A stretch of 63,632 nt of DNA, filler included, from Psammoneis japonica (Eukaryota): NCBI GenBank assembly GCA_008632985.1. It is 7 parts of 6 records of this genome, joined end to end, with 100 filler letters (N's around TTAATTAATTAA, not from the genome) between each part and the next. Parts side by side here need not be neighbours in the genome. Positions count along the whole stretch, not along the records: positions 29,159 to 54,064 come from QPGO01000038.1; positions 54,165 to 59,788 come from QPGO01000048.1; positions 59,889 to 62,055 come from QPGO01000048.1; 4 more parts are not named here. One strand, written 5' to 3'. This document shows positions 29,159-62,055 of the stretch, in pieces (position 1 is the first letter of the stretch; each line of letters opens with the position of its first letter). The position numbers were made by a program, and so were the translations under genes. A model generated the notes under the pieces. It did no database searches, was not told where the DNA came from, and worked only from the letters and a program-made list of their open reading frames with translations.

Positions 29159-29519
29159 GCATGCCACGGGACCAACTGTGGACATGATGCGGAAGATTGC
29201 CGTCAGCTCAAGCACCACGTGAAACGTGTCAAGACTGGACATTCCAACAACGGAGGCGGCAAGCCCAACACAAAACCTCGGAATGAGGAAGATGTTAATG
29301 CTCTCATCGGATCGAAGGTCGAGGAGCACTTTGCCAATGCTCAGAAAAAGCGCAAGGCCCGCGAGGAGGAGCTTGATCACTTCCGCGACCTCAACCCAAG
29401 TGGTTCCGAAGACTCGGACGCCAGAGAAGGGGGCCGACACGATGCAGGCAGTTTTAATGCATTGGATGAATGTGTGAATGAACAACTGAACTACCATCGT
29501 ACACGTGTTGCAGGCCAAT

Positions 29520-30401
29520 CCCGCAAACGAGTTAAAAAGACTCATCTTGCTCCAATCTTGTTTGCAGCTGTGAATGCTGAACATGGCAAGGGCAAGACTC
29601 AAACCATTAAGACACTGCCAGACAGTGGCGCCAGCAGTGCTCCACTCGACAGTCGACACTGCAAACGTCTGCGAAGCCATTCAACGGCTGAGACAAACTG
29701 GCTACGGTGGCAGGCTCGTCTGGCACGTCTGACGACTGCACCGTTAAATTTCGGTTGCCAGAGTTGTCCGAAGCTGCAGAACTTGAGCATGCCGTCCACG
29801 CACACAACAGAAAGCAGGGCAAGTGCGATGTGATTGTTGGACGTGACATTCTGGAGACACAAGGCATTGACGTTGTCTTCTCCAAACAGATGACAGAGTG
29901 GCCATTGGTCAATGGAGAAGTGCCAATGAGGCACGTAGATGCTGCGGTGGAAACCTCCTTCTATCTTCAAGATCCAGAAGCCTTGTCTTCGGAAACCGAC
30001 CGGATTTCGCGCATTTTAGACGCTGAGCACGCGCCGGCCTGCCTCGAGGACATGACGCGAGGGGCAATGGGACTTTCCACAGTTCAACAAAACAACCTTT
30101 TGGCACTGTTGAAATGCCATGAGTCCTTGTTTGATGGGACATCAGGAGAATGGAAGGGAGAGCCCTGCCATGTCCAACTCAAGGAGGGTGTGGAACCATG
30201 CCATGCTCGTCCGCATGAAGTGCCTCGTGCGCACAAAGCTGCGCTGCGTAAAGAAGTAGAACACCTGGCACGTGTCGGTGTTCTCAAATGCGTCAACCGA
30301 TCCCAATGGGCAGCTCCATCATTTGTCATGCCGAAGAAAGATTTAACGGCACGCTTTGTTGATGATTTCAGAGAGCTGAACAAACGGATCAAGCGATTGC
30401 C
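29520..30401 (+). pseudogene. Gypsy pol 5' part: protease and RT N-terminus
   Basis: LPDSGAS, CDVIVGRDIL and SQWAAPSFVMPKKDLTARFVDDFRELNKRIKRLP. It ends at the Copia TSD. Confidence 0.85.
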
Positions 30402-30582
30402 GAATGAATGCCGATGCAGCCGCGTGGGGCAATGACAGCACCTTGAGCCCAAGAGCAGCAGCGACAAACCAAAGAGAACCCTGTGTCGATTAGAACGTGT
30501 GAGATTGTGGGAAAGAACAAACCACCAGATCGTGCGCGTCAGCCCCGGACCAGGGACTGACCGCTCCACCCAGATTTACTCG
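30402..30582 (-). repeat. Copia 3' LTR
   Basis: Direct repeat of 36358-36538. On the minus strand it is preceded by the G-rich PPT-like CGCGGGGAC. Ends are uncertain by about 1 bp. Confidence 0.9.
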
Positions 30583-30699
30583 GTCCCCGCGAAACGGCAG
30601 TGACAATGCCGATTCGTCTAAACCTGGAACATCCTCTCACAGAGAGGCAAACACAAAACCCAAATTCAGGCCACCAGCAATGCTGGCTTGGGAGGCCGA

Positions 30700-32674
30700 A
30701 ACAAGTGGGCGCGAGCCGCAGGTGTCTGGCCTTGGTGTCGGGGCTCTGCCAAAAGATGCAAGAGCAAAGTTTCCAATGCCGCTCTCCCGTCGTCACCTTC
30801 ACAAACAAATCCCGCCAAATTTGTGTCCGTGTCCTCCTTCCAACGCGAATGACGCCAGCCGCAACCGCTTCACGAACCAAATGACAGTTGACAGCATCAT
30901 GCTTCTTGTGCAACACAGATTCCGGAACACTGACGTTCTTCACCACGCCGCGGTTGTCGCAAAATGCATTGGCAGGGCCTTCAATCGGCACTCCAAACAT
31001 GCAAAGTTTGTGACGCAAAGCAACAATCAACTCCTTGCAAATGCGCATTGCAACCAATTCGCTGCCAAACGTCGCTGACTCCACTGTGTTCTGCCGCTTG
31101 CTAAACCAAATGATCGGAGCATTGTTCACGAATGTCAAAATCCCGCTGTGCGATCTGCGAGCAACAACGTTTCCCGCATGGTTGGCGTCAACAAATGCAG
31201 ACACATTTGCCGGGTTGCCACGGGGCTTGGGCATCCATGGCGGCAACTCCTCCTCAACGTCCCCATAAAACTCCGTCCAGTCCGCAGTGGAATTGAAAAC
31301 AGATTCGTCAATCACAGGCATCTTCGGGTCAAAACCAATGCGACCGACATTCAAATGCTTCTTCATGTGCGCGAACACATGGTGCAACGCTTCGAGGTGC
31401 CCTTTCCTTGGGTTGGCTTGACACTGAGAGAGAATAGAAACTTCATGCAAGATGTCGACACGGCCCAACTCGATCGCCCAACGACAAATGCCAATCAACT
31501 GCAAACACCTGTCCACCAAATCGGGTCCCAACTCGTCCGTCACGTCTAATTCCGGCTTGTGCTTAGAAGGCAGTGGGTCCCTCACATTGTTCTTCAAGAC
31601 TGCTCCGTCACCGTCCTCTTCTAACAGCCCTTCCACCGTCTTGATCGCCGACTTGACACACGACTTCGGCGAGCTTGCCCAAATGGTGCACCCATCTTTG
31701 GTCTGAACCTTCTCGACGTCGGCTCCAAGGCACAACGATGTCTCTCCTTCACTCCCAGGTTTGACAGCAAATGATTCACCCATGCTCTCGACAATGGATT
31801 TTCCTTGATGAGAAATGATTAGAATGTCGTCAACATGAACCAAAAGCATTTCATAATGCTCGTGCCCATCGTCACGAGTCGCCGCACGAACACAAACGTT
31901 GGGATCCGCCTTCGTTGATTCAAAACCCATGTTCCGTAAAACGGATGCCAATGCGGACCTCCAAGAGTGTCCAGAGCTCTTCAAACCGCACAGCGCTCGA
32001 GTCACAACTAGAACCTTGCCTTGGTGCTCTCCACATTCCCTGCCACCTTCGAACCAGATCTTCTCCGCACACGGGGCATTCAAGTGCGCGTTCTCCAGGT
32101 CGACAGCCGCAATGTCCACTCCATTCAATGCTGCCAGCAGGAATCCTAACCGCACGCCATCCCTCGAAACAACACTTGAGCATGTGATCGATGATGGTGT
32201 TTCCGCAGCATGACCTCCTGCAACAAATCTGGCCTTCCCAGTGAAATCCATCTTTGCGTCGAATGCCAAATGGCACCTGATCTCCTGACAACCACGCAAA
32301 GTTGCACTCTTGCCTTCCCGGACGACTTGAGGGGTTTCAGCTTCATGTTCGCGCCACGCTGCCTTGACCTTGTTCATCTCCTTGTCAATTGCGCGAGCCC
32401 AACAGTCCGTCCCCGTTTCCTGGTCAATCTTCAAAGCATCTTCCGTAGACTTGGGTAAACGTGTGCCGAACTTGTGGGCAGTGCGCCAATGTTTCTTCTT
32501 AGCCTTCGAGATGATGCGATTCCGCTTGCCTGAAACATGCGTGGCCCACCAAGCAAACGCCGGTTCTTCGGTTGACCTGTTCGCTGCAGCATGCTCAGCA
32601 AGCTCAATCGGGCTAGACTCCTTCAGATCCTTGAGTTTCACCCACGACAAGCTGCCGTCCTTCCATGCGACCAA
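30700..32674 (-). pseudogene. Copia reverse transcriptase and RNase H
   Basis: KARFVAGGH, DLENAHLNA, RALCGLK, LLVHVDDILII, FVDANHAG, SKRQNTVESATFGSE and FCDNRGV. Only 2 Tyr in the 711-aa ORF. Confidence 0.92.
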
Positions 32675-33156
32675 TGGGTTCCATCCTTTCGTAGTGTCTT
32701 CTTATGTTCGTTCCCGTCAGCTGTCTGAACTGTTCCTTCCTGGATCGGTGTAGCTTCGCCGGTCTTTTCGTGATCCTGTGTCTCCTGCAAAATAGAGTGC
32801 TGGTTGCCTTGCTGTCAACTTGAGCAAACACATTCTCCGCGATCACATTGGCAGCACGCTTGTCTCTGGCACCGTCTGTGCATTCAATCTCACATTCGCG
32901 GGTGTCAAACAATGGATTCTGATGCCGGGTTCCAATCAGTTGCCCATCCTGACCTCGTGCCCGCTTGACTGCGACTCCTCGCCGTTCAGCGTTAGTCCCA
33001 ACATCAAACACGAGTTCCATTCCAAGACATTGATCAATTGCCTGTTCGTCGTCGTCCTCGGGTCGTTCTCCTGGCAATGACATGTCCCCGCATTCCTCAT
33101 CGGTTGGTGTCACACCGCCTTCACATTCCATGCCGGGGTTGCCGTCGATCGCCAAA

Positions 33157-34020
33157 TCATCCAATGCAAATGCTGGTGCCCTTCGTCGCCTTGTAAAACG
33201 AAACTGGTGTCATCCAACCGTGCCCGAGTTGTTCGTCAAACTTGTCGACTTTCACACGAGTGTCCGGCTGCACCATGTCGGCCTGCGTTACATGCTCGAC
33301 CAAAGTCTTCGAAACCATCTTCCCGGATTCCGTGACAATCCAATGACACATGTCCGATCCGACCTTGTGAGACACACCAAGCCATCGTCCAAGCCTCCTC
33401 GGGTCATCTGTTACATTCGGCTTGTCGTGTCCATCCCACCACCAGACCAGATCACAGAAACCGAAGTCCAAACACTCGCCTGTTTTGGGTGTCTGACCAG
33501 TTGCCTCTTCACACCCAGTCCGTTTGTCGCGGCCTCTTGCCATGCGAGACACAAGTTCCGATTCACAAACTAGACCAAAATCCCACAATCGTTTCGGCAC
33601 CTTCTTCCTCGTCATCCGCAGGCGCCAACACTTAGCCAAGAACCCGATCTCTCTTTCTGCTGCGTGATTCTGATTCTTACGACCTTGTTCCGTTGTCCTG
33701 AGTTGGATCCTCATTCGACGTGTGTGTTTCACAAACTCAGTGCTTCGTCCTGTGAACTCTCCAGCACCATCCGACATGAGACACTCCGGCACTCCCACAT
33801 CGTCTGTAAAGTCAACGAGAGACAAACCTGCCTCCGACCTTGCGGTCATTGGCACAACCTTTACGAACTTGCCCTGAGCACAAACATTGGCACAAGTGTG
33901 CCGAGCAAAGACTTCACCTTGGACATTAACGTGTCCACAAACCATGTCCCTTTTGATCTTTTCCGATGCAGGTCCAAGTGATCCACCCTGACTCTCCTTG
34001 ACATTGGTTGGGTCACCGTC
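33157..34020 (-). pseudogene. Copia integrase
   Basis: WFVDT, DVGVPECLMSDGAGEFTG, QNHAAEREIG, VPKRLWDFGL and LGRWLGVSHKVGSDMC. Confidence 0.85.
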
Positions 34021-34444
34021 CNNNNNNNNNNNNNNNNNNNNNNNNNNNNNNNNNNNNNNNNNNNNNNNNNNNNNNNNNNNNNNNNNNNNNNNNNNNNNNN
34101 NNNNNNNNNNNNNNNNNNNNNNNNNNNNNNNNNNNNNNNNNNNNNNNNNNNNNNNNNNNNNNNNNNNNNNNNNNNNNNNNNNNNNNNNNNNNNNNNNNNN
34201 NNNNNNNNNNNNNNNNNNNNNNNNNNNNNNNNNNNGACTGGAGACAATCGAGTGAGTTCAGCTTCAACCTCGCCCCATTGGACTGCTTGAGACTTGGCCC
34301 TGTCGCTCTTCATTTCTGAAATCTGTTCCTGTCTCATGCCAGATGTCATCGAACGGACAGCGCGCATCTCAGATTGCTCCCTTGCACGCTGTGGTGAACC
34401 CACATCGACTTCCGTTGGACTCCACACGTCTCCTGTTGGCAGCA

Positions 34445-36120
34445 TCACTGGTGAGTTCTTCTCCTCCCAATCCGTGGAACACGAGACTTGAAAAATGCAA
34501 TTGTCCCCATGGAATTGAAAGGCATGAAAGCTTCATCAGCTTCGATTCCAAACCCATTTCGAGTGTCGCAAGGGTTGTCGTGTGCGGGCACATTGTGCGC
34601 TCGCAACTGATTGGGGTTCAACAATGAATGCTGCACGTCAGTTCCAAACCACAGCATTTGGTCTCCAACCAGCAAGCACTCGCGAGTCGTTTCCGGATCC
34701 GTCCATGCTGTGCAACAACGCGCCACAGGAATCTGTTTAACTGGCTCATGCGAATCTAGAAACGGGTGCACTTCACAGACTTCGTTCGTCAATTCCATGA
34801 GTTTCCAGTTAGCGCCAGCACAACAAGTGTCCGCATGAGTGTCACATTCGTTCCTTGCCATGAAGCCGGGTGTCGTTAAGTTCGTCATCGCGGTGGTGGT
34901 CGTTGACCTTGTCACACGTTTCGAAGTCACAGCAACGCGCCTTTTCGTTGCCTTCTCTTGCAAATGAAACATTGGGTGGGGTTTGGTTAACAACATGATG
35001 AGCAACATGAATGCAAATGATGTGTGTGCCAAATGCGCCAACGCTCCCGTAGTTGAAACCACCCCGATCAGTCAAACATGACCTTGACAGGCCCCTCGAC
35101 CGAAAGCGCGCCCATTCCTGCCACCACGATCACGGTCAGCTCCGCGACCGCGGCCACCGTTTTCACCTTGCGCTTGATCTTGCTGCCCTTGACCTTGACG
35201 GTCTTGAACCTGAGCTTCGGCTGCTTGCCTGTTGCCTCCGTCGCGTCCGCCTCTTCCTGCAGGGTTTCCTCGACCACCGCGTCCGTGCATCCTTTCACGA
35301 GCTTGAAAAACACAATTGAGACCTCCGTTAAAGCGCAATCTGTCCCATTCCTGGTCGGCAAATGTCCTCGTAGGATCCGACACATCGACTCCATCAATCA
35401 CAGTTGTGCGATCACCGCCCCTTCCTTGATGTCCTCCGCGTCCTCCACCACGGCCAAATCCACCGCCACGCCCACGACCGCCGCGATGGAAACCTCGGCC
35501 ACCACCGCCACCTCGGCTGATCTGAGAAATCTTGCGCTTCGCATGATGCCAGGCTTCCAACTGAGCACCTGCATGCAAACGAGAGACTTCGGATGAGAAA
35601 CAAGCACACGCCCCCGCGAAGTCACGAGGGCACTGGTTGCCAATGACGGCCGTAGCTGCCACAAGACGGGCATCCTCTGATTTGATGCCCTTCTGCAATG
35701 TTTCAACCTTCTGCCGAGCAGATGTGCTTTCATCTGGAACCTTGTCCAAAGTGGCAAAGGCACTGGTGAGTTTCTCCTTGAATTTCTCAAACGCAAGTGC
35801 ACCTTCCTTTTTGTAGAACTGGTCAACAACACCACAAACCTGCAATGCCGCGTCCACGTCAGCCGCCGCGGCCAAAGCCGCAAGTGCCACTGCTGGTGCC
35901 GCTGCCATCCTGTGACAAGAGAAACAGAGGCAACAACCCGCACAATGGGTCGCAATTTGGTGTGAGTGCGCATGGCACAGGAGGCCACACCGACCGGTGC
36001 TGTGACAACGGGTTCACGCAGCCAACTGACTTTGGGGTGATCAATCCCGTGTCGTTTCCATCGTGAGCACACGCTCGGGCATGCTGCCCAATGCCGCAGT
36101 CGCTCCACACCCGTTAACAA
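34445..36120 (-). pseudogene. Copia gag (RGG-rich C-terminus) and aspartic protease
   Basis: FEKFKEKLTSAFATL...KVETLQKGI, RGG repeats, DGVDVSDPTRTF, and protease ECDTHADTCCAGANW...SLLNPNQLR. Confidence 0.8.
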
Positions 36121-36342
36121 CATGGAGATGGTGACCATTTTGCGAGCATTTTCCGTTGCAAGCTGTTTCCTTTGGTCGTCATACGCGACACAGAGCACAC
36201 GCTGCACGCGACAACCCCCTTTCGACGCTGCGCGTGCGAATCAGTGCATTTTCTACAGCTGCTCGTTCCATGCACACAATCACAACAATCAACCGTTTGC
36301 AACGAGTTGTTTCCTTGTCCGTTTCGTTCAGCTTTTCATCAA

Positions 36343-36356
36343 TGGCTCTGATGAAG
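36343..36356 (-). other. Probable primer-binding site (initiator tRNA-Met type)
   Basis: The minus strand reads CTTCATCAGAGCCA next to the 5' LTR. The canonical iMet PBS is TGGTATCAGAGCCA; here TAT appears as CAT and the first three bases mismatch. Confidence 0.5.
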
Positions 36357-36357
36357 C

Positions 36358-36538
36358 AAACAAATGCCGATGCAGCCGCGTGGGGCAATGACAGCACCTT
36401 GAGCCTGAGAGCAGCAGTGACAAACCAAAGAGAACCCTGTGTCGATTAGATCGTGCAAGATTGTGGGAAAGAACAAACCACCAGATCGTGCGCGTCAGCC
36501 CCGGACCAGGGACTGACCGCTCCACCCAGATTCACTCG
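36358..36538 (-). repeat. Copia 5' LTR
   Basis: Direct repeat of 30402-30582. Confidence 0.9.
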
Positions 36539-36543
36539 TTGCC

Positions 36544-38824
36544 TCATCCGATTCCTCATGTCCAAGATGTGCCACTTGGGCTCAAAGGCTTTGTGTGGGC
36601 TGCATTGCTGGATTTAAACATGGGCTGTCATCACATCCGATTGGATGCTGACAGCAAGAAGCTCTGTGCGCTCATCTTCCCGTGGGGCAAGCATGAGATG
36701 CAGGCATTGCTCATGGGATTGTGCAACTCGCCAGACATTTTCCAAGAACGCATGTCAGGCTTGTTTGAAGATCTGTCGTTTGTTCGAACGCACTTAGATG
36801 ACCTTCTCGTTGTGACGAAAGGCACCCATGAAGATCACCTCAACAAACTTGAAGAAGTTTTGTTGAGGGTCCAGAAAGCAGGACTAAAAGTTAACGCAAC
36901 TAAATCTCACTTCTGTCAAACCCAATTAGAATGCTTGGGTTGTCTGGCTGACAGAGACGGAGTGCGACCAACACCTGATAAAGTCGACGCCATCAAGCGA
37001 ATCGCGACCCCAACCAACAAACGCGACCTGCGTTCATTTGTTGGCATGGTGAACTGCTGTCGCGACACGTGGATTAGACGTTCTGAAGTCTTGGCTCCGC
37101 CAACACGACTCGCAAGCGAGACTGTTAAGTGGGAGTGGACGTCCGTTGAAAACGAGGCATTCGAAACCGTCAAACGGGCAATGTCGGATGATGTTTTGTT
37201 GTCACATCCTGATTTTAACAAACCCTTTGAGATGCATGCCGATGCCTCTAAATGTCAATTGGGAGCAGTCATGTCCCAAGATGACAAACCTGTCGCCTTT
37301 TGCAGCAGAAAGCTCAACAGTGCGCAATTAAATTGTGCAACAACGGAGAGAGAATTGCTCGCCATTGTGAAGACGTTGAAAGAATTTCGAACGATTCTCC
37401 TTGGTCATCGTGTGATCACACACACTGATCATAAAAATCTTGCGCACAAAGTGTTCAATGCCGAGCGCGTCATGCGCTGGCGGTTGACATGCGAAGAATG
37501 CGGTCCCGAATTGCGCCATGTTAAGGGTGCCCACAACCCAGTCGCTGACGCTCTTAGTCGCCTTCGACTGGCACCCAGCTTGCCTTCCGAGGCCAATCCG
37601 GATGTAAAAGACACTCCATCGAGTCGTCCTTTGCATGAAGCCTTTAATGCAGACGCTCAAGATGAGCCATCTCTGCCTGTTAGCTTCAAGCGCATTCAAA
37701 AAGCACAACAAAAGGACAAGCGCCTGCTCTCACGAGCCAAGGACTCGTCCGACTGCTCCATTCGCGCGCATCGTGGGGAAGGGTCATCACGACAGTCAAT
37801 CTGTCATAAGGACAAAATCGCAGTGCCGCAGTCATTGCAGGTTCCGCTAACTGAATGGTGCCACGAGACACTGTGTCATCCAGGTGAGACACGTGCGGAA
37901 ATGTCCATTGCCCAGCACTTCTGTTGGCCTGGCATGAGGTCTGCGGTGCATTCTACGTGCGTTGAGTGCGATCGATGCCAGAAGACAAAACGCCGAACGC
38001 AGCATTGTGGGAAGCTGCCAGAAAAGGTCGCAGAGATAATTCCATGGGAGACTCCATGCACAGATGTGATGGGGCCACATAAAATTCAAAGACACGGAAA
38101 GGACACCTTGCAATTGTGGGCAGTCACAATGATTGACCCAGCAACCGGGTGGTTCGAGATTGAAGAAGTGTCTGCGAAATGCGCAGACATCGCAGCAAAC
38201 GTCGTGGAACAAACGTGGCCATGCAGACATCCGTGGCCAACCCAGGTGGTTTATGACCGTGGGACAGAATTTATGGCAGAATTCAGCCAGATGATTAAAA
38301 ATGACTGTGGGATTTTGAAGAAACCCACAAGTGAACGGAATCCACAGGCGAATGCCACAGTGGAACGTGTGCGCCAGACACTTGGCAACATGGTGCGTTC
38401 CTTTTCAGCACAGGACATGGAACTGGACGAAGATGACCCATGGAGTGGCATCCTCTCCGCAGTGGCCTTCGCCATTGGAGCTGCGGCACACACGACCACG
38501 CGTGCAAGTCCCATGCAATTGGTCTTTGGACGCGATGCGGTTTCATCTGTTGCCCATCGTGCCAAGTGGAAGCACATAGAAACCAGAAAGCAGAAGCTCA
38601 TCCACTTAAACAACAAGCGTGAAAATCAGAAACGCAAGGAGTGTCAACATGCCGCAGGGCAATTGGTGCTTGTCAAGCAGGAACAATCCTCTAAATGCGG
38701 TTCTAACAGCCATGCAGGACCCGCCAGTGTTGTCCGTGTGTGTGACAATGGCACGTTGTGCACCCAGAACGGAGCACTGACAGATGCGCACAATCTGCGG
38801 CAGATTGCACCCTGTCACCAGTGA
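36544..38824 (+). pseudogene. Gypsy pol 3' part: RT, RNase H and integrase
   Basis: LDLNMGCHHI, HLDDLLV, DASKCQLGAVMSQ, ERELLAIV, HTDHKNL, H-x4-H zinc-finger, YDRGTEF and NPQANATVER. One Tyr in 787 aa. Confidence 0.93.
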
Positions 38825-39289
38825 GACATTCTGTCACTTGACGGCCCTGATCATGGGGGAGTGTGCAGCATGCCTCGCTGCTGGACAACACGGTGAGACC
38901 GTGCATGAGCCTCTTGCACGTGGCAACGTGGTGTTGTTAACACGCACCTGGGAAGCACGACCACAGGAGGGCGTGGCTCTAGATCTCAGGCAATTCCAGA
39001 AGGATGCCAAGAGAGCATCCGTGTGAAGCACACCAGCCCGTCGTCTGGCCCACGATGGCAGCGTGATTCCACATGATGACATCACTCGTGCATGGCGCGT
39101 GATGGCGTGATTCGCACGATCCATGATGCGAACGCACGATCGATTTGATGCGATCCAAACGCGAACGAATGGGGATTTGGCAAGATTCCCCATTCGCACG
39201 ATCCCATTTTCTCTGCTCTAAACTAGCTCACAATTTTCACAACGACAAAGTCGCAACACATCTTCTTTTTCAGCGCCTGGTGCATGCAT

Positions 39290-39640
39290 GGGGCACGAGT
39301 GCATGGCTCTCTGCACTCAGTGAAATCCTGCTCAACGGCATGGAAAGAACACTTTGGCAGCTCAAGCTCATGCCCAGCTGCGCCCAGCAAATCATGCCAG
39401 AGTTGATTGTTGGGCCATGTCTTCAATTTAGACAACAAAGTGGCGGAAGACAAAGAATTGCTCACAGCTGGAGGTGTGCATTGATGGAGGTGCCAGACAA
39501 GCAACAAGGCAGCAAGGTTCAATTGGCTGGTGTCATGCTCCCCGACAGTGTTCCCCTCATGCCCCAAGTCCACGGACAGGGGAGGGACAGCAGGAGGTGC
39601 ACCTCTGGCCTGTCCAAATTGATGTTGACTCCATGTCCAA
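39290..39640 (-). mobile_element. Short non-LTR (LINE-like) RT fragment; second copy at about 52120-52465
   Basis: QLWHDLLGAAGHELELPKCSFH resembles the W..LL...GG.L...KC motif of LINE RTs. Confidence 0.45.
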
Positions 39641-39849
39641 AGTGCTCTGCTGCTGCATCCTCTGGAGCATCTGCTGCCATCCAATGTTTGAATGTCTTCG
39701 GATTGTCTTGAGGACCAGCTGGCACTTGAATGGTCTTGATGCTTGAGTCTGCTTTCTCCTTGAAAGCATCAATCTTTCGGAACACTCTCTTTGTCTCTTC
39801 TGCTTCTGCGCACTGCAGCTTGCAGCAGAGACCGCTGTTGGACGAAAAC

Positions 39850-44433: not shown

Positions 44434-44434
44434 T

Positions 44435-47400: not shown

Positions 47401-47419
47401 GATGAAGAACGCGGGGCAA

Positions 47420-51860: not shown

Positions 51861-53304
51861 ATGAAAATGGCGCAGACAACGGCGTTTTGCCAAGTTGAAA
51901 AATGCGGTTGTCTCTGAGGTCGGAACCTGGATGCTCTCAACAGAATTTGGTGCATTGTGCCATCTTGTGAAAGATTTTCTTCAGCTGAGTCCTCTGGGTG
52001 CCAATTGGAGCCAAGCAGCGTCCGAGGGTTTTGTGCAGAGCACAAGCTGACAGTTGAGTGCCAGAGCGGGACTTGGGCCTGTCTGCAGAAAAGACTTCAA
52101 TGCCAAGGTCTTCATGGTGAGGGCGAGTGCATGGCTCTCTGCACTCAGTGAAATCCCGCTCAACAAGCATGGAAAGAACACTTTGGCAGCTCAAGCTCAT
52201 GCCCAGCTGTGCCCAGCAAATCACACCAGAGTTGATTGTTGGGCCATGTCTTCAATTTAGATGACAAAGTGGCGGAAGACAAAGAATTGCTTGCAGCTGG
52301 AGGTGTGCATTGATGGAGGTGCCAGACAAGCAACGAGGCAGCAAGGTTCAATTGGCTGGTGTCATGCTCCCCGACAGTGTTCCCCCCATGCCCCAAGTCC
52401 ACGGACAGGGGAGGGACAGCAGGAGGTGCACCTTTGGCCTGTCCAAAATGATGTTGACTCCGTGTCGTAGAAGAAAAAAACATTGAAAGTTGCTGAATGG
52501 ATCGCCTGACATTTGCACCATGAAATGATGCAAAATTTTGCCAAAATCACGCAGAAATCTGCGTGCACGACATGCGGCATGATTCAAAAAACTGTCAATG
52601 TCACAGCTCAGCAGTGCGAGGTCCCACCCAGACCTGGAATGCGTCAATGATGAGTGCGAACAGGTGCGTCACTTCAACTCATTTGTGTCAGACGCCCCAT
52701 CAAAATGAGAGCATCATTGTGGGTGCAAATGACGGCGACTCTCTGCATCGCTGCTTGGTTGCTCAGGTGAGTGTCTCTCACAACCAACTGGGGGAGACGG
52801 GCCACATGACCAGCACAATCTGTGCATCCGCATGGATTGTGCTGAGTGGAGATGGGTGCATGCACTGTCGACCTTGAGTTGTGCATCAACTGTCACGCCC
52901 AAGATGCTCTCCAAGAGGTGGGACATTGGCCTGATGGCCGCCAAGAACACCCTCCGAGTGACGACCCAGGCAGGGGTCAGCAACGTCAAGATCATGGGTT
53001 GCATGAGCTCTGGGTGCACGCTCAAGGACAGAAGTGTCTGCGAGCCGGAGGAGCAATTGGGCACCCAGATCAGAAAGTGCCAGTTGTCTGACTTGGAAAG
53101 CAAGGCATGCTGGGCCATGTCCTCTGACCTTTGTGTCAAGTGGGAGTTGACTGATGTTGAGCTGGAGCTCAAGAAAACTGAAAGGCGTCTTCCGACAAAG
53201 GCGTCAACCCCCTTGAGACCGCAACACAGGCCTGAGCTGGACGGCTTGCCTGAGTTGAGTGCCAAAATGGCCACTGTCATCAAGGCTTTGTTGGCGTGCT
53301 CCGA

Positions 53305-54064
53305 GTTGTTTGTTTTTCTTGAAAAGACATGTTTGTTTTTGTCAAAAAGACGCGCTTGTTTTCCTTGAAACAACATGTTTGTTTTCCTTCCTTGAAAAGA
53401 CATGTTTGTTTTCTTTGAAACAACACGTTTGTTTCACTTGAAAAGACATGTTTATTTTCCTTGAAAAGACTTGTTTGTTTTCTTTGAAACGACATGTTTG
53501 TTTTCCTTGAAAAGACATGTTTGTTTTCCTTGAAACAACATGTTTGTTTTCCTTGAAACGACATGTTTGTTTTCCTTGAAAAGACACATTTGTTTTCCTT
53601 GAAACAACATGTTTGTTTTCTCTGAAATGGCATGTTTGTTTTCCTTGAAACGACATGTTTGTTTTCCTTGAAACCACATGTTTGTTTTCCTTGAAATGAC
53701 ACGTTTGTTTTCCTTGAAACGACATGTTTGTTTTCATTGAAAAGACATGTTTGTTTTCTTTGAAATGAAATGTTTGTTTTCCTTGAAAAGACATGTTTGT
53801 TTTCTTTGAAACCACATGTTTGTTTTCCTTGAAACGACATGTTTGTTTTCATTGAAAAGACATGTTTGATTTCCTTGAAACGACATGTTTGTTTTCCTTG
53901 AAACGACATGTTTGTTTTCCTTGAAAAGACACATTTGTTTTCCTTGAAACAACATGATTGTTTTCCTTGAAACGACATGTTTGTTTTCCTTGAAAAGACA
54001 CATTTGTTTTCCTTGAAACAACATGTTTGTTTTCCTTGAAATGGCGCGTTTGTTTTCCTTGAAA
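53305..54064. repeat. 23-bp minisatellite array running to the contig end
   Basis: Same unit as 40480-41717. Confidence 0.95.
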
Positions 54065-54164: not shown

Positions 54165-54821
54165 CGTGCCGGCTGGTGCCAGTTGCATTAAGTCCGCCGT
54201 GTGCTCGGCAACTTGACACTGATCGTGGGTGAGGTCGCCCACAAGACCGAAGTGGCGGCCGTCCCAAGGCTGCGGGTCGCCAACCACCGTGATCGGATGG
54301 GTGGAGATTCGATGGGAAATTTGATTCTTTCCCGGGTCATTTCCAAGGCCCTGTGCGCGACAGTGGGTCACGACGGGCACAGGTGCATCGTGACCGGACG
54401 CCGCGGTCAATCTTGTAAACAGCGCAGCGGGGCTGTAACGGGACTGGCCGTTTGCGACCGCGGCTGCGTCTGCCACAGTGTTCGCGTGCGTGCCGCAGTG
54501 CGGATCCAACGCCTGCGTGGTGCAGAAATCTGTGCACGTGCGCATGGCGTGTGGAAGAGGTGGCATGGCCACCGGTTGTCCATGGCCATGAACACTCGGT
54601 TGTCCGCCGGCTTGTGCCGGTGGAACAGCCTGTGGTGGTGCTTGCGCGGCTGGAGGGGGCGGCTGTTGCTGCCCCTGTGGTGGGACTGGTGGCCCCTGAG
54701 GCGGGCCTTGTCCCTGCGGCACTGGATGTACAGGTGGCGCTGCGTTGGGAGCCTGAGGCTCCTCTGGAGCTGGCGCTCCTGGATTTGCTGGAGGAAAACC
54801 TCCTGGATTCAACATGCTCAA
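54165..54821 (-). pseudogene. Pro/Gln-rich N-terminus of a probable retroelement ORF1/gag-like protein, TpA-mutated
   Basis: RTCTDFC...DPHCGTH...SHRISTHP...PWDGRHFGLVGD has Cys/His where Tyr would be plausible. The family assignment is tentative. Confidence 0.4.
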
Positions 54822-57255
54822 TGGTGACTTCTTCTACGGAAATGAAAGACAACAGCGGCGGAGGTGTCCTGCGTCGAACCGATGGCATTTTAACCTGTCT
54901 ACGGGCCGGCTTGCTGTTGTTGTTTCCAAAAGAATGAGAGGAAACAAAGCAGCCGGTGAGAGAGGCGGCCAGGAAGTTAGGGAACTTTCAAATGGAATGG
55001 GGAATCTCGCCTTGCGGATTGCTCGAGGACAGTGGTGTTGGGGAAACAGGTGGCGGAGGGAGCGCGCGGAGCGCGCTGGGAGTGGCAGGTCGTCAAATGG
55101 TGTGGGTTAGCGCACATGACGACGTTGCTGACGCAGACAGTCATCCTTTAAGTGAGCAGCCCCATGCACGCTATAAAGTTCATAGCGCACACAAAGAGCT
55201 GCTGACGTCACGGGGTCATTCTGCTTCTATGTGCGCTGCAAATCTCCCCTGTGCACGCTGCCATAAAGTGACATCCACAATTGTGAAGAAAGACAGAAAG
55301 GCAATGGGTCAATTTTCAGTTTGGATTGCCGACATGCATCGATGAACATGTGTGCTTCGCAGGCACCACGCAACAAACTGCAGCACCACAATGATGCGTG
55401 CCGCCGGTGTCTCACTTTACGGCATGATGTCTCAATGACGCTTTCGCCGATTTTCCTGTTTGTTTTTGATTTCTTAACAAAAATTGTGCAATTCATCCGA
55501 AAAGCTTGGCGCTGTGGCTTCTTGACTTTGCTCATGCCACCCTCACAAAAGCAAGCCTTTGTTTCCTTGCCCTGCTTCTGCTTTCTGCTGCTGCTCACCT
55601 TGGGCTTTGGCATGTGCTGGAGATCATTTCTGGCCACCTCAGATGCTGCATGCCTGTGAACTTGTCTGTGCTTTTTGTCTTTTCTTTTTGTTGTTGCTCT
55701 GGCTTCTTGCTGCTCCAACACACAGAGCACTGCTTTTTTGCTGCTGCTGCTGCTGCTGCTTTTGTTCATGATCATCATGCTGGGGAGCTCCTTGCCAAAG
55801 CTGCAAAGAGATGATTTTCCAGATCTGCAACAAGCATCAAAGCAGCAGTTCTTTGTGAGGCAGCTCTCAACAACAACTGGGCCAAACCCCAAACTGGTGC
55901 TGCTGAGAACACTTTGCAGTTTGCAAGGTGTTGCTTGGTCATGGACAACATGCAGAGTTTCTCAGCTGGCTTGCTGTGGTGGCAATGAGCTCTTGCTGGG
56001 TTGTGCTGTGTAGAGCATCTCAGCTGCTTGTGCTTTTGGCACCCAAAGCCGTCTCACAAGTTTCTCTTTTGGCATCTTGTTCATCCCTTCCACCTGTTTC
56101 TTCAAGATGCAGCATGCAGCAGGGCTCTCTGTGAGAGCTGGCATGTGGTGCCATCCTGGCTTCTTTTGCTTTGCCTCTTGCAGCCATCAGAGCTGCAGCT
56201 GGACACACTGGTTCTGCACAAACTCTCCTTGTCTGCACGCCACACTTTGTTTTGCACCAAATTGTGAGGCAAATCTCAACTGGCGCAGCTGTCACACACC
56301 CCAAAATGGCATTGAAAACACTTTGTGGGGTGCTGCTTGGCTGCGGACAACCTTTGGCCTTCTTGGCTGGGGCCAGCTGGGGGGCAGCAGCCAGCTCTCT
56401 TGCTGCTGGGTCACAGCACAACACGCTGCAGAGCATCTCTCAACTGCTGCTTGCTTTTGGTGCCCAAAACAGTCTCACAATTTTCCCTTTTTGGCATTTT
56501 GTTCACCCCTTCCACCCAGTTCTTCAGTGCACAGCACACACCACTCTCCTCTCTGCACCCCGGCTCTTGCCCCTCTTCCTCTGGCTCTCTGCGCATCTTT
56601 TTTGCTTCTTGCTGCTTTGCCTTTTGTTGCAGCCACTGGTGCTGTGGCCAGACACTCTGTTTTGGCACAAGCTCCTTGTCTGCATGTTGCACTTTGCTTC
56701 AAATGTTGTTCCTTGTCCTTTTGAGAGGAGATGCCTTTGGTGATGGGTGCTTGTGCAGAGTTGTTTGTTCTCCCCACTTTAACATCCGGGTTGCTTTTGC
56801 GAGTTGACTCTCGCTTCGCTCGAGTCGAGTTAATCAAAACCTGCTGCCCACACCAGGTAAAAAAATGCCCGCTGCGAGAGGGAGAGAAAAAGGGTTGGCC
56901 GAGGGTGCGGACGGACGGTCGGGAGGAGGAGTTGGTGATGGAGGGATGGCGGAGGAGGAAAGCTTGACATGCAGAGAGATGGTTGGAGAGAGCAAAGCCA
57001 AAGTTGAGGCTGAGGGTTTGGGAAGCCCAAAGCAGGGGTGTGGCAGCATGGCAGGAGGAGCCGAAGTGGGCGGGGGAAAGTTGTTTCCAGGCCGCGTTGG
57101 GTTGGGTGAGGAGGTTGGAAGGAGCTAAAAGGGAGTTGGTGAAGGCAGAGAAGGATGCTTGAGAGTTAGAGAAAGAGGCTTCTTCATCACGACGTTCTTG
57201 CATCGCTGCCAGAACTTCCGCCTGTAAGCCTCAGCACCAAACCTGCTCAAGGATC

Positions 57256-59788
57256 GGGGGCGAAGTCGATATGTTACGCTTTGTCAGCGAGTGCGTTGCT
57301 TGCGGTAGGCTTGTTAATTGGTACACGAGGTGTGCGAAGATCAAAAAAGTAAAGCAAAAATCACAGTACTTTGAGACAATTAGAAGTACCCAAGCAACTT
57401 GTTGCGTTCTTTGTCATGGATACTTATATTATGCGCGTATTTCACTATGGATACCCCGTTTCTCTTTGACTTCGGTAGCTGCTTGTCGTATTCTCTTCAT
57501 CGTATCTGCATTCCAGGGAGGCAAGTGTTCGTGTTCGCAAACGGCAGCCCCAATAGCAGAAGCGATACAACCAGCATCGACGAGAGAGGTGCTGGGCAGG
57601 ACAGCATGCTACTTAGAGATGGATCTTTGACAGAGAAGGCGAAGGTTATAGGAATAGAACCGATTGCTTTTCCGGACGCCGCGACTGGTGACATGTCTGA
57701 AAGAGATTCAGAATCATGTTCTTCTCGCCTAGATGAAATAAGTACCGTGTTTGACGCCATTTCACCGGATATGCACCTTTACAGGGCGTTCGATAAAACC
57801 TGTTGGAGAAAATGGGATGCAGCAGTGAGAGATGGTCCGAGAGGTAGCTTTATTAGAGAACGGGGCTCAGAAACCAAATCCCCCATCCCAGCTGCCGAGC
57901 TTCATACTTGCGATGGTAGTCCCGTGAATCCTACGGGGGCTCGGAACGCCTACTCTGCAGCCATGACGACATGCATTGGTGCAGGAGTCCGGTGAGTCCG
58001 CACCAACCTCTATGATCACATGCAAGGTAGAGAGAGTTTCCTCTTCTCGTAAACATATTTTAAAACATCCGCAGCAGATGGACAATTCCTCCACAACCCC
58101 CCAGCGCCTTCTGGTCCAAAACTATCGTTCAGGGGCATCCACTGAACATTTTGGTCTGAATCATGCCACAATTGGTTGCGAGGTGTACGACATACTGGTC
58201 CTTCAAGGACTTGTGACGAATCAACCATAGGGTCCAACAGCTCATGCAGCGCATTGTTCTCACGTTCAGACCAATCAAGTTTTCCGACTGGGCCAAGAAA
58301 TCCAAGAAATGTAACTGGCTGTTGCAGAGGATCATCTATTGAGTCGTTATCAAGTACCGCCAGCGCAGCTCCAAACGCTGCCTGAGGCCCACCACCTCCA
58401 ATCGGTAGTCTTCCGTCAGACGGGTTTTCTAGGCCCTTTCGGTAGTCATCAATTATAACTTTCCCTGCACAACGACGACGGTGATGCGAGTTTTGATGAA
58501 GACGTACAACTTTAAAATGAGCAGCGGAAGATCAACAGTCTCTCCTTACCGATGACAACTACCCGCTGCTTTGAGATTGCCCTTTTTGGGATAGCTGAAG
58601 TGCTACGAGGACCAGCGACAGAAAGAGCCACTTGCATCTTACATTCATTTTTATCGCCGACGGCGGCATAATGCAGGAAAACACCGTGATGAACGATTAA
58701 ACAACAATAGTCCAGAAAATATTTCAGCATGCGGAAAACAAACTCAATATGTTTAATGTCCAATCGCCCACACAAATCGGAAAGCAACCGCAACCTCCAA
58801 GTCGCTCTTCCTGTTTTCCTGTCGTCATCACATCGCACATTATTTGCCAGCTGTTGAGTAGCAGCCACGCAAATATCGTTTAGTGACGCTCACTAAGCAA
58901 TTGAAATAGCACCCCACATAGTTCGAATCTTTACGTGCAGCATACAATGGCTATCCAGCAGTTCCTCACATCCAGCCACGGTTACATAATGAGTAGGAGT
59001 TGTACAATAGAATTCGTTGAAACACACTGTACGACGTCAGCAAGAACATGTGTCTGGCATGCATCCTACATAATGTGTACAGCACATACTACCGTAGGGC
59101 CATTGCACCCAATCGACGGACGCCTTCCGTTTTGTTTCGCGGTTCTCGCTACAGCGAGCGGCGCAGCATCAGTCACTTTCATGGAGTGCACCGCTGGTCG
59201 TTGTCGACAACCTCCGTGTCTTGTGTTGTGCACCACTGTGGAGGAACCGGATGCAACGTCGTCTCATGAAAAGGACACGTCTCTTGCAAAGGAAATCGAA
59301 GGCACCGTTGCCGCAACGCCAGCGTCTCTTGCACCGCCGCGCAACGCAACGATCACAACTGCGACCGCGGAGGTAGCGCCGACTTCAACCATGATGAACC
59401 AACCGTCGTCGTTGGTGGAAGGAGACGTGCTGGTGTCGCAGACGACAGCAAAACCGCCTGCAAAGGAGCCAATCGCCCTCCCCCCATTGATCCCTTGCAA
59501 GGCATCCGAAATCTGTGGAGGACTGGATTTGGTCACCACACACAATTGCGAATCGGCAAACTCAAGCGGCACCATGCATTTTGAGGATCCGAGCTGCGAC
59601 ATGAGTTTGATCCACACAACCGAAGCAAAAGCAGATGCAAACAACCCGGATCCTGGAAACAACGAAACAACTGAGATGGCAGCAAGGAAGGATGCAAAGA
59701 AGAAATCAAAGGAGATGGCATTGTCTAAAGATGTGAGAGCCTGGCAGAGTTGTCACGCCACCGCACAGTCGTTCATTGATTTCATGAG
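57256..59788 (+). repeat. Second copy of 22302-24838
   Basis: Reverse-complement near-identity. Confidence 0.95.
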
Positions 59789-59888
59789 NNNNNNNNNNNN
59801 NNNNNNNNNNNNNNNNNNNNNNNNNNNNNNNNTTAATTAATTAANNNNNNNNNNNNNNNNNNNNNNNNNNNNNNNNNNNNNNNNNNNN
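59789..59888. other. Artificial contig-joining spacer
   Basis: N44-TTAATTAATTAA-N44. Confidence 0.95.
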
Positions 59889-62055
59889 TTGCAAGCCAGC
59901 TCTTGCTTTGTTCACATCATGTCGGACTGCCTCAGACACACGACTGTTCGATCAAACCTGCTTACAATCATTCCGTCAAGCGGTGGAGAGAGAAATCGTC
60001 ACTGAAGAAAATCTGAAATTCTTGCAAAATCTGCAAGATGCAAAATCTAATTGTCTGCGATTAAAAAGCACATCAGATTTTCTTAAACGCACTGCCCGTG
60101 AGCATGCATCGGACGACAATGAATTTAGCACAAGGTGCAAAAGCGACGCCGAAGACGACATCGGAACGGCTTTGCAAGGACAAATGCTTGATGCTCTTCT
60201 AGATGAATTGGTGAACCATGAACACGAAGACAGGACAGAAGCGAATGATGAAGCAGCCGCACCCACGATTTAAGTGGCAAACAAACCAGACAGAAGGGAA
60301 GTCACCTTGCAGGATGTCAGCACTTGGCATGCATGTGCATGACTTCTTCAGATCAAAACACTGTCATCAATTCGGTCCCTGTCGTAGAAACAATGGAGCC
60401 ACCAGAAATTGAGGTTAATGAAGAAGACAATGAAAACAGCATGCAAGCAGATGAAGAACCTGTGCCTCAAATTAGGAAACGAGACACAGTTCGAGCATTG
60501 CTGACCAAGACTGGACGCATTCAACAATCTTTCCAAGACACAACTAATTCGGAAGAAGCCGTTGATGTCCTTGAAGCTAACGGCTCAGCTAAAAGCTTAG
60601 TTGATTGGTCAAAAAAAGCCAAGCTAGACCCACATCAAAGTCGTGCTTTTGAAGTCATGGCAGGAACTTTCATTTTGACGTGCTGCAAAGACGCTCTGGG
60701 AGAACAAGCAAGTGGCAATGTAAGAGGAGGAATTAGACACGAGTTTGACAAAGAACACAGGAGATTAGCTGAGTTAGTTGAAGTGCGAGAACAAAGAGGC
60801 ACACAGTTAATTTGTTTCTTGCATGGAGCAGGAGGAAGTGGCAAATCCACTGTTGTCGATCTTGTTGTTTTGTGCACAAGAGAATGTTGCTCTTTAATTG
60901 AACGACCATTCACTGCACAAACAATTGCCGTCACTGCCATGACCGGAGTTGCAGCGACAATTCTGAAAGGAGACACCATTCACAGAGTTGCCTATCTAAA
61001 CAGGAAAAAAGAAACAACAGAAACACAAATGGAAAGCTGGAGTGACACTCGTCTGCTGATTGTCGACGAAATGTCATTTGCTTGCAGAAGAGATTTAGAA
61101 AAATTACATGCTAATCTATCCATCGTGAAATCCAATTTAGACAGGCCTCATGGGGGTGCAAGTGCAGTGTTTGCAGGGGACCTGAGACAACTCGAGCCAG
61201 TTGGACACGGAATGCACCCTCTGCACAAGGAGACCTGTGCCGAATTCCAGGAATGGGTGAACTGCCACATCCAGTTGCATGGGATGCACAGATTCAGTGA
61301 GGATCCAGAATGGGGCAGTTTGCTAAAACGATTTAGAGATGGCGAAGCGACTCTCGAAGATGTCGACAAAATCAATGAAAGAGCAGCAAGAAAGGGTCAA
61401 CAACTGCCAGAGAACATCAAATGTGCATCATGCAGAAACAAAGAAAGAGACTCCATCAACACAGCCTTGTTTGAGGAAAGGACCAAGAGACTGCACCAAA
61501 GAGATGGAGAAGTCTTGGACTCTCTAGCCATTTTCAGTGACGATTTACAAGTGCGTGACGGAGCAAGACAGTGCAGGCCTTTCCCGGTGCACAAAACATT
61601 CTGGAAAAACTGTGGAGAGAGCGATGTGGAAATGCAATCTGGCAGGCTTGATCCAGTGTTACGAACATGCAAGGGATGTAGAGTTATGATCCCGCACAAT
61701 GAAAATGTGGCAAATGGCATTGCGAACGGAACACAAGCAACACAGCAAAAGTCGTGCTGAAACCAGGAGAACATTCATCGCAAGTGGTCTTGGACTGTGG
61801 AACATCCATTCGAGGTGTCACAGCATCCCAGGTGGATCATGTAGACTCAAGCATGGCAACAAAAGCATCGATCCACCCACCTTTTCGCTCAAGCCTAAGT
61901 CCCACTTTCAAAGCCTGTTTAAAGGACCCAACCCAATGGATGACAGCTGAGGAAAAAGAGAAACACATGCTCGGACTGAAAGCAACCCATTGCCATTCAC
62001 AACAAAACAATGCGACTGCAGGACACAAGCTTCAAGGAAGCGGGCGGTGTCAACA
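59889..62055 (+). mobile_element. PIF1-family SF1B helicase, probably from a Helitron-like element; frameshifted and TpA-mutated
   Basis: FLHGAGGSGKS, TAMTGVAA, LLIVDEMSF, FAGDLRQLEPV, GMHRF, NGIANGT and ATAGHKLQG. One Tyr in the 478-aa ORF. Confidence 0.8.

Follow-up and report, generated by a model that had tools for sequence, protein, structure and literature searches.

Erasure of TpA from repeats of the diatom Psammoneis japonica points to a TAY-specific A:T to G:C mutator

Introduction

Repeat-induced point mutation, known as RIP, in Neurospora and other ascomycetes depends on the RID and DIM-2 cytosine methyltransferases and occurs premeiotically. Its dinucleotide-specific transitions saturate repeats, spare single-copy genes, kill transposons, and leave a skew in dinucleotide frequencies (PMC2621366, PMC7296669). 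A different kind of system has been described very recently in the chlorarachniophyte alga Bigelowiella natans (Rhizaria), in which adenines at TpA are replaced by guanine. The present report concerns a stretch of 63,632 nucleotides of DNA from the diatom Psammoneis japonica (NCBI GenBank assembly GCA_008632985.1), referred to here at its full length as the window, in which transposons and other repeats have lost almost all TpA while host genes are spared. The TA erasure in this DNA is a further case of the recently described kind, so far reported once, in the unrelated alga B. natans.

The available text of the B. natans report (Mettrop et al., bioRxiv 10.64898/2026.01.13.699255) describes mutation-accumulation lines in which two integrated viral regions acquired 231 new mutations, 230 of them A>G or T>C and all at TpA. 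The hypermutated DNA consists of integrated nucleocytoplasmic large DNA viruses and virophages, and nothing unusual is seen elsewhere in the genome. Reverse-transcriptase and DDE domains are enriched in a group of 324 coding sequences with low TpA, and the authors propose a candidate deaminase of the ADAT2/TadA type. Full-text literature searches turned up no description of a TA-erasing signature in diatoms. Mutation accumulation in Phaeodactylum revealed a GC>AT bias, and the accessible part of that study reports no TpA hypermutation (PMC6604790).

The reading preferred here, to which a probability of roughly 78% is given, is that repeats of this diatom have been rewritten after integration by an A:T to G:C mutator specific for 5'-TAY-3' (Y, pyrimidine; R, purine), of the same kind as the TpA hypermutation of B. 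natans. What is new in this case is the TAY/RTAY motif and the strand symmetry, the link between copy number and read depth, a mutated domain with a sharp edge, a process separable from CpG decay, and the presence of environmental relatives.

Results

TpA content of host and repeat DNA

The loss of TpA follows the repeats. In 2-kb bins, the ratio of observed to expected (o/e) TpA is 0.33-0.76 over 1-29 kb, 0.12-0.21 over 30-40 kb, and 0.00-0.05 over 40-54 kb. Each 500-bp bin of 39.5-54 kb contains 0-3 TA where 13-54 are expected. The AT-rich bins (GC 0.31-0.32) of the minisatellite region have 0-1 TA against 52-54 expected; in bin 40501, for example, there is one where 52 are expected. The repeat features concerned are these.

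29159..30406, + strand: 5' part of a Ty3/Gypsy element (gag/protease open reading frames, ORFs), truncated by the scaffold start and broken by the Copia insertion
30407..36543, - strand: nested Ty1/Copia element with 181-nt long terminal repeats (LTRs) at 30407-30587 and 36363-36543; Pfam RVT_2
30539-32701, 33157-34257, and 35072-36013, - strand: Copia ORFs for reverse transcriptase (RT)/RNase H, integrase, and gag, respectively
36544..39450, + strand: 3' part of the Ty3/Gypsy element, with an RT-RNase H-integrase ORF at 36392-38824; Pfam RVT_1, RT_RNaseH_2, Integrase_H2C2, and rve
39451..54064, no strand: saturated old repeat DNA, with TA almost absent, CpG halved, and long stop-free frames on both strands
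40481..41720, no strand: 23-bp minisatellite, AT-rich and TA-free (Tandem Repeats Finder)
43803-44434, 45566-45766, and 53307-54064, no strand: further 23-bp minisatellite arrays (Tandem Repeats Finder)
54165..57177, no strand: portion of scaffold 54165-59788 that is multicopy and depleted in TA; its core at 55476-56779 is saturated
57178..57270, no strand: edge of the mutated domain and junction of repeat and single-copy DNA
59889..62055, + strand: Helitron-type Rep/helicase fragment with a PIF1-like helicase ORF at 60252-61760; Pfam PIF1 and AAA_30

Two classes of affected DNA were pooled: partly depleted DNA, made up of the nested Copia/Gypsy pair and the Helitron pieces, and saturated DNA, made up of 39.5-54 kb and 55.5-56.8 kb. 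The TA counts are 1153 over 32,021 bp of host DNA (o/e 0.55), 149 over 13,556 bp of partly depleted DNA (0.19), and 26 over 15,918 bp of saturated DNA (0.02). A preliminary description of this DNA, made from the sequence alone, had stated that transposon and repeat DNA is nearly devoid of TpA even where AT-rich and that host genes are spared. Both statements agree with the pooled ratios and with the bins. The tetranucleotide RTAY distinguishes the two kinds of DNA in 1-kb bins as well, with 4-20 per kb in most host bins and 0-1 at 29-57 kb and 60-62 kb. The exceptions among the host bins are 3001 and 22001, which hold two depleted islands described below.

The products expected from the loss of TpA increase in step with it. 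The TG/CA ratio of observed to expected climbs from 1.18 in host DNA to 1.45 in partly depleted and 1.63 in saturated DNA. The other dinucleotides that begin with A (AA, AC, AG) show no depletion while TA drops to 0.02, and ApA is enriched (1.15, 1.22, and 1.47 in host, partly depleted, and saturated DNA). There is no loss of TpC, since GA/TC stands at 1.14, 1.09, and 0.91 in the same order. CpG in saturated DNA is halved (0.49), a feature absent from the preliminary account.

Loss of TpA also opens reading frames. TAA and TAG stops together fall from 14.9 to 1.3 per kb per strand between host and saturated DNA, while TGA is unchanged, and long stop-free frames occupy 25% of the six-frame space in saturated DNA versus 15% in host DNA. 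Dead repeats gain long open frames in this way because TAA and TAG are removed and stops are never made, A>G and T>C creating no stop codon. Among 19 long ORFs tested at 39.5-58 kb, 18 had no Pfam match; the sole match was a helicase-associated (HA) domain at 39519-40319. The labels of LINE (long interspersed nuclear element) fragments and MITE (miniature inverted-repeat transposable element) given earlier to parts of this DNA found no supporting Pfam match among the ORFs tested.

Direction of change at conserved positions

Most conserved tyrosines of the transposon proteins have become cysteine or histidine. Each ORF was aligned with homologues from public data (60 for Gypsy, 60 for Copia, and 66 for the helicase), and columns conserved in at least 70% of the homologues (at least 60% for the helicase) were compared with the window. 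The Gypsy pol ORF has 1 Tyr in 810 aa, the Copia RT ORF 2 in 720, and the PIF1 ORF 1 in 502; the preliminary description gave the same counts with slightly different lengths (787, 711, and 478 aa). It had also called these proteins rich in Cys and His, which holds for Gypsy, with 3.9% Cys and 4.8% His compared to 1.4% and 2.5% in the 60 homologues. At 24 conserved Tyr columns, Gypsy has 12 Cys, 10 His, 1 Trp, 1 Ala, and no Tyr. Copia has 9 His, 7 Cys, 1 Phe, and 2 Tyr at 19 such columns, and the Helitron helicase has 3 Cys, 3 His, and no Tyr at six. Over the three ORFs, the 49 Tyr columns contain 22 Cys, 22 His, 2 Tyr, and 3 other residues. In the Copia RT the consensus LLVYVDDIL appears as LLVHVDDIL. 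General decay does not account for this pattern, because conserved Cys columns were kept in 14 of 14 cases and conserved His columns in 22 of 23.

The substitution spectrum supports the same direction. Changes were found at 233 of 1072 conserved columns, and the single-step spectrum, with ancestral states taken from homologues at 50-67% identity, has 89.0 A>G changes with a 5' T, 11 A>G with another 5' base, and 17.5 G>A of all contexts. Just 3 of the 100 inferred A>G changes have a 5' A. Changes away from residues other than Tyr also fit TA>TG/CA, including Thr>Ala (T|ACN>T|GCN), Ile>Val, Val>Ala (GTA>GCA), Ile>Thr (ATA>ACA), and Leu>Pro (CTA>CCA). The alignments thus support TA to TG/CA as the direction of change. 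The earlier proposal of A to G at TpA on either strand is upheld by the Tyr columns of the homologues, which are Cys or His in the window, and by the clear excess of TA to TG/CA changes over G>A in the comparison with relatives.

These comparisons bear on the idea that the elements are natively poor in TA, through selection or a compositional habit of the family, and that no mutator is involved. Mild avoidance of TpA is general in this DNA, as the host ratio of 0.55 shows. Against a native origin, the median TA o/e among 78 Copia relatives in metagenomes is about 0.70 and their median RTAY density is 16.9 per kb, compared with 0.17 RTAY per kb for the window Copia, and all 240 Gypsy and Copia homologues (120 of each) have at least 1.7% Tyr. 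The catalytic YVDD motif appears as HVDD, a change that inactivates RT, and the non-coding minisatellites are TA-free too. The idea has next to no probability.

Target context

The target is 5'-TAY-3'. The TA dinucleotides that survive are not random but lie in TTAA, CTAA/TTAG, and CTAG. In host, partly depleted, and saturated DNA, RTAY occurs at 10.3, 0.22, and 0.06 per kb; half-sites at 10.1, 2.2, and 0.3; and YTAR at 5.6, 6.4, and 0.9. With intact relatives of the Copia as the better-suited baseline, the fraction surviving in the window Copia is 1% for RTAY, 16% for half-sites, and 59% for YTAR. Since TA is palindromic, survival alone cannot tell which flank matters, and codon-resolved sites were used, namely conserved codons with A in first position and a T immediately before it. 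The numbers converted and kept depend on the +1 base (C 12 and 1, T 10 and 2, G 3 and 4, A 1 and 9; Fisher p = 4.6e-5). The -2 base shows no preference, with 19 R and 23 Y among non-Tyr events. A pyrimidine at +1 is favored and the -2 base is neutral, and the target is thus TAY. RTAY holds two good targets and vanishes first; YTAR holds none and goes last. A hand estimate from the Copia survival figures suggests that TAY is converted about nine times faster than TAR. RTAY is a cleaner marker of the process than TpA itself.

The context allows two other chemistries to be weighed. Error-prone repair synthesis in heterochromatin by a polymerase of the Pol eta type would produce WA>WG errors; the somatic-hypermutation hotspot of Pol eta is WA, with TA its strongest context, and the events seen here are A>G on both strands. 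Pol eta mutates AA as well as TA, whereas AA is spared here: ApA becomes enriched as TpA is lost, and A is rare as the 5' base of the inferred changes. The strong preference for a +1 pyrimidine is also unlike Pol eta, and near-complete saturation is hard to reach by polymerase error. Pol eta had been among the chemistries first put forward for this DNA and is now very unlikely. A TadA-like deaminase, another of those candidates, would fit TAY, which recalls the U33-A34-C35 context of the TadA substrate.

A thymine modification could leave the same pattern with the same targeting. The T in 5'-RTA-3' of silenced repeats would be oxidized by a TET/JBP-type enzyme to 5-hydroxymethyluracil (5hmU) or 5-formyluracil (5fU), which would mispair with G to yield T>C. 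An A>G change at TAY is, on the complementary strand, a T>C change at RTA, and all of the counts fit both equally. In dinoflagellates, according to the accessible part of one study, a TET/JBP homologue makes 5hmU, which takes the place of T mainly in TA and TC and has a silencing effect on transposable elements (PMC11572971). That preference takes in TC, while TpC is not lost here, and no report of 5hmU in diatoms was met in the literature consulted. The thymine route is considered unlikely.

Strand symmetry and timing

The mutations affect both strands equally and arose in DNA. The 86 unambiguous TpA events divide evenly, 43 having changed the coding strand to give TG and 43 the opposite strand to give CA. 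Runs tests detected no significant strand clustering (z of -0.79 for Copia, 0.01 for Gypsy, and -1.63 for Helitron), and no long single-strand tracts were seen at the spacing of non-synonymous sites. The Helitron helicase, the non-coding minisatellites, and unclassifiable repeats are affected as strongly as the retroelements. The two Copia LTRs form a 181-nt direct repeat with 95% identity and a spacing of 5956; they had the same sequence when the element inserted, and they now differ by seven events: two TG<>CA doubles, one TA<>CA, one TG<>CG, and three transversions. The changes arose in integrated DNA, because DNA other than retroelements is affected and the LTRs of one element differ. The process therefore acts after integration and is copy-specific, and the DNA-level process proposed in the preliminary description is borne out by the strand counts, the breadth of elements, and the LTR pair.

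An RNA origin was weighed against these results. ADARs carry out hyperediting of double-stranded RNA derived from repeats, and they favor a 3' G. If an ADAR-like enzyme edited A to I in retroelement RNA and reverse transcription fixed the changes in DNA, the outcome would be A>G with a 5' U/T preference, which the signature resembles (bioRxiv 10.64898/2026.01.13.699255, in the available discussion). Such a source acts on RNA and would leave changes confined to transcribed retroelement sequence with a bias to one strand, unlike the even strand ratio relative to the coding strand and the equal involvement of DNA of all element classes, and it would not produce differences of this type between the LTRs of a single integrated element. 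The 3' preference is also unlike that of ADAR: a +1 G is a poor context and A the poorest, while +1 C or T sites were converted in 22 cases and kept in 3. In addition, the mutated domain ends at a repeat junction and not at a transcript end. An ADAR-like origin is highly improbable.

Two pieces of the window give a hint of recent activity. Positions 22302-24838 match the reverse complement of 57256-59788 in an alignment of 2542 columns that has 99.25% identity, 5 substitutions, and gaps in 14 columns, and these scaffolds are probably two haplotypes or an unmerged overlap. All five substitutions are A<>G, and three are TA<>TG, at 22715, 22925, and 23013, at or near the island at 22090-22923. 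Three of five between near-identical copies (n = 5) is no more than a hint. The old internal duplicates in saturated DNA differ by a mixture of transversions, CpG decay, and further transitions; TG<>CA doubles number 7, 3, and 10, with no outgroup to polarize them.

Loss of TpA is separable from decay of CpG. The Copia element has a TA o/e of 0.14 and a CpG o/e of 0.94, and the two Gypsy parts together have 0.21 and 0.85 (RTAY 1, half-sites 16, YTAR 31). Older repeats show CpG decay: positions 39451-54064 have 25 TA in 14,614 bp (o/e 0.03) with CpG at 0.53, TG at 1.60, and CA at 1.63, and the core at 55476-56779 has a single TA (o/e 0.01) with CpG at 0.11. Copia lost TA without losing CpG and the older repeats show CpG decay; in this DNA, TA is therefore lost earlier or faster than CpG. 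Decay of CpG from 5-methylcytosine (5mC) likewise enriches TpG and CpA in repeats and is present in the older repeats of the window. Unlike TA erasure, it cannot turn Tyr into Cys or His or remove TpA.

Copy number and the edge of the mutated domain

Public reads show that the TpA-depleted part of scaffold 54165-59788 is multicopy and that the depletion stops close to the repeat edge. The read evidence consists of Logan contigs from one public sample (runs X1, X2) that contains scaffold 54165-59788. The summed word depth is 175-4360 over 54165-57172 and 42-136 over 57173-58864. Because of this difference from the single-copy flank, 54165-57172 is multicopy. The depth steps from 2220 in bin 56985-57172 to 78 in bin 57173-57360, and single-copy contigs start at 57178. 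RTAY first reappears at 57270, with 10 more by 57566, and TA is normal from about 57270. The mutated domain thus stops no more than about 100 bp from the repeat edge. The earlier idea of repeat targeting is supported by depth and by the sharp edge for 54165-57177. One contig matches the window rightwards from 57178 and continues leftwards into 255 nt of unlike, TA-containing sequence, which suggests an alternative junction, such as an allele without the repeat.

The contigs reproduce the TA-free core. They match 55979-56237 (259 nt) with no differences and pieces of 212 nt and 211 nt with one difference each. Forty of at least 107 variant letters were listed. Among these 40, another copy has TA against CA or TG in the window at 16, the opposite holds at 2, a further 14 belong to the CpG type, and 4 are transversions. 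One read contig carries seven consecutive sites with CA in the window and TA in the other copy, at 55157-55209 (52 bp), the only local run seen. TA is readable in such DNA and copies differ in the extent of conversion, because the contigs include TA-bearing copies.

Artefacts of sequencing or assembly, such as systematic miscalling of a modified base in repeats, are extremely improbable given these matches. The scaffolds are small, unplaced, and joined by linkers, and the contigs come from a sample that may be the source of the assembly, both of which favor such an explanation. On the other side are the exact match of public-run k-mer contigs to the TA-free core, the TA copies present at some sites in the same contigs, and the adjoining of TA-normal and TA-free DNA within one scaffold. 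Two Copia relatives in unrelated metagenome assemblies (L045 and L055) share the pattern of Tyr>His/Cys, and in B. natans the mutations were measured by Illumina sequencing of mutation-accumulation lines, according to the available text of that report.

Depleted DNA outside and normal DNA inside the described range

The preliminary description confined the depletion to 29159-62055. The start and end of that range are merely linker edges, and it covers three pieces. Within it, 57271-58950 has normal TA (o/e 0.68), and two further depleted islands lie outside.

22090..22923, no strand: TA-depleted island at the start of scaffold 22090-24838, with 1 TA in 834 bp (o/e 0.02) and no RTAY
2708..3940, no strand: TA-poor island in a gene-bearing scaffold, with 8 TA in 1233 bp (o/e 0.13)

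No RTAY occurs over the 1288 bp of 2663-3951, where about 13 are expected at host density. The ORF at 3333-4040 has a weak match to Uma2 (PD-(D/E)XK), with E = 0.0017, below the Pfam cut-off, and keeps four Tyr.

Environmental relatives

Two environmental relatives of the Copia element carry the same signature as the window. Among 80 Copia-related loci from metagenomes, L045 and L055 have a TA o/e of 0.30 and 0.25. At conserved Tyr columns L045 has 3 His and 3 Cys, and L055 has 2 His, 2 Cys, and 1 Tyr, while the control loci L021 and L040 have 7 of 7 and 6 of 6 Tyr. The search pattern for Copia loci included a Tyr, so that converted copies are under-sampled in these counts.

The converse of the window Copia is also seen. 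The environmental relatives L053, L059, and L072 have a CpG o/e of 0.03-0.16 and still 7-23 RTAY per kb. When L042 and L056 are included, the range of CpG is 0.03-0.30 at the same RTAY density, a state of CpG decay without TA erasure.

Low Tyr occurs among helicases of the Helitron type as well. Six of the 150 best cluster representatives (P0441, P0464, P0470, P0482, P0493, and P0505) have less than 1.2% Tyr with raised Cys and His, and P0511 was noted alongside them. They come from ENA or Logan assemblies. At eight helicase columns with a Tyr majority, the counts are 5 His and 1 Cys for P0441, 4 His for P0505, and 2 His and 2 Cys for P0511.

Layout of the window and other features

The 63.6-kb window is not one locus but seven separate pieces joined by six N44-TTAATTAATTAA-N44 linkers, at 21990-22089, 24839-24938, 29059-29158, 54065-54164, 59789-59888, and 62056-62155. 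The linkers produce stops in all six frames. Since the stretch is a chain of separate small scaffolds, neighborhood across linkers has no meaning. Host genes in the window, identified with Pfam, encode a D27-like carotene isomerase, a cohesin loader of the Nipped-B/PDS5 type, and a RIO kinase. The best named relatives of the D27-like protein are diatom proteins (Asterionellopsis, Amphora, Seminavis, Nitzschia) with 64-78% identity, which places the organism among the diatoms.

The Gypsy ORFs at 29111-29833 and 29692-30435 resume in the pol ORF beyond the Copia insertion. Homologues of Copia are 1300-1440 aa long, with identity up to 67%. The best homologues of the helicase are about 1900 aa long and match at about residues 1250-1740; the Helitron fragment has a TA o/e of 0.25, with no RTAY, 11 half-sites, and 27 YTAR.

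The saturated DNA at 39451-54064 contains internal duplications, for example 42958-44431 and 52463-53931 with 89.9% identity. Of the 14 long ORFs tested there, 13 had no Pfam match. The ORF at 39519-40319 (- strand) has two HA stretches (PF03457) inside saturated TA-free DNA and is a dead gene-family copy rather than an evident transposon protein. The four 23-bp minisatellite arrays have, in order, 53.9, 24.3, 8.9, and 32.8 copies. The array was examined for units that carry TG or CA at sites of ancestral TA. Across 109 units, one column pair reads TG in 95, CA in 7, and TA in 2, and another reads TG in 89, CG in 13, and CA in 6; this is too weak for a diagnosis, as the array probably expanded after mutation. 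A complex tandem array at 51010-51725 has periods of 17, 34, 119-120, 187, and 204, and one of its frames gives a repeat rich in Lys, Gly, and Gln. The 500-bp bins 50001-51501 hold no TA.

Discussion

Comparison with known systems

The signature resembles that of B. natans in several respects. Mutations are nearly exclusively A:T>G:C, with 100 A>G and 17.5 G>A here. They are restricted to TpA and yield TpG or CpA depending on the strand, and foreign or selfish DNA is affected while host genes are spared, as seen here in the RTAY bins and in the multicopy depth. The two cases differ in host, which is a chlorarachniophyte there and a diatom here; the words "diatom" and "stramenopile" have no occurrence in the available B. 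natans text. According to that text, the targets are two single-copy viral insertions that keep many TpA (Rho 0.45), whereas transposons and repeats here fall to o/e 0.00-0.05. The rate was measured directly in B. natans, where the process was active in only some lines, while the window records a footprint alone. A preference for TAY by the 3' neighbor and the order RTAY, half-site, YTAR are not mentioned in the part of the B. natans report available.

Like RIP, the process acts through dinucleotide-specific transitions that saturate repeats, spare single-copy genes, and kill transposons. The direction is opposite, as first described: RIP changes C:G to T:A mainly at CpA and makes TpA and stops, while here A:T changes to G:C at TpA, TAA and TAG are erased, and TG/CA is enriched. 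RIP acts on duplicated sequence; in the window multicopy depth has been found for 54165-57177.

Proposed mechanism

A context-specific mutator would act on integrated repeats, including LTR retrotransposons, a Helitron fragment, minisatellites, and unclassifiable repeats, and would turn A:T into G:C at the adenine of 5'-T-A-Y-3' on either strand. RTAY would be lost first, half-sites next, and YTAR last, until TpA is essentially gone. The mutator would halt within about 100 bp of a single-copy junction, and the erasure would be quicker than, and separable from, the CpG decay of older repeats. Most likely an enzyme, TadA/ADAT2-like or another protein with a deaminase fold, would deaminate adenine to hypoxanthine, and this product would be read as G. 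Targeting might rely on repeat identity, small RNA, or heterochromatin marks. A repeat-directed adenine deaminase is probably the mechanism, and its role may be genome defence of a RIP-like kind.

Several points weigh against this reading. No deaminase gene was found among the window ORFs with Pfam, and the deaminase is a guess from the chemistry and the TadA substrate context; the counts would fit the complementary thymine chemistry as well. The defensive function is putative and is read from a footprint. The read contigs come from one sample, which may be the assembly's own source, and are a weak independent check of platform artefacts. Copy number was obtained from a single scaffold, 54165-59788. 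The island at 2708-3940 is TA-poor without evidence of repetition and retains four Tyr codons. Tetranucleotide products were used to distinguish a rule at the +1 base from one at the -2 base: the YTGY:RTGR ratio rises from 1.26 to 1.67-1.88 in saturated DNA, a clear outcome, and stays at 1.27 in partly depleted DNA, which is ambiguous. Finally, the 233 changed columns include 50.5 transversions and 64 columns that need at least two changes. Ordinary decay is therefore also present, as expected for old dead copies.

A bolder version of the deaminase proposal is tentative and somewhat less probable than an even chance. Diatoms would run a dedicated defence that is RIP-like and chemically opposite, in which a TAY-specific, repeat-directed DNA adenine deaminase works with edges of less than 100 bp and faster than 5mC decay. 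It may be an ancient immune module of the entire group of stramenopiles, alveolates, and rhizarians (SAR), since a rhizarian alga and environmental contigs share the signature.

Conclusions

TA erasure has practical consequences for the study of diatom genomes. Dead repeats fill with long open frames and can be mis-annotated as genes, and such frames distort analyses of codon usage, GC content, and methylation proxies (CpG o/e, TG/CA). The RTAY/YTAR ratio is a sharp and cheap marker with which diatom genomes can be surveyed for the process and candidate enzymes narrowed down by phyletic co-occurrence. Base-editing work would have an interest in a natural enzyme that changes A to G in DNA within a defined context.

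If the preferred reading is true, this diatom represents the second eukaryotic lineage with mutational genome defence of the A:T>G:C type, and the first in which transposons are the main target. RIP-like systems would then extend beyond fungi and beyond cytosine chemistry.

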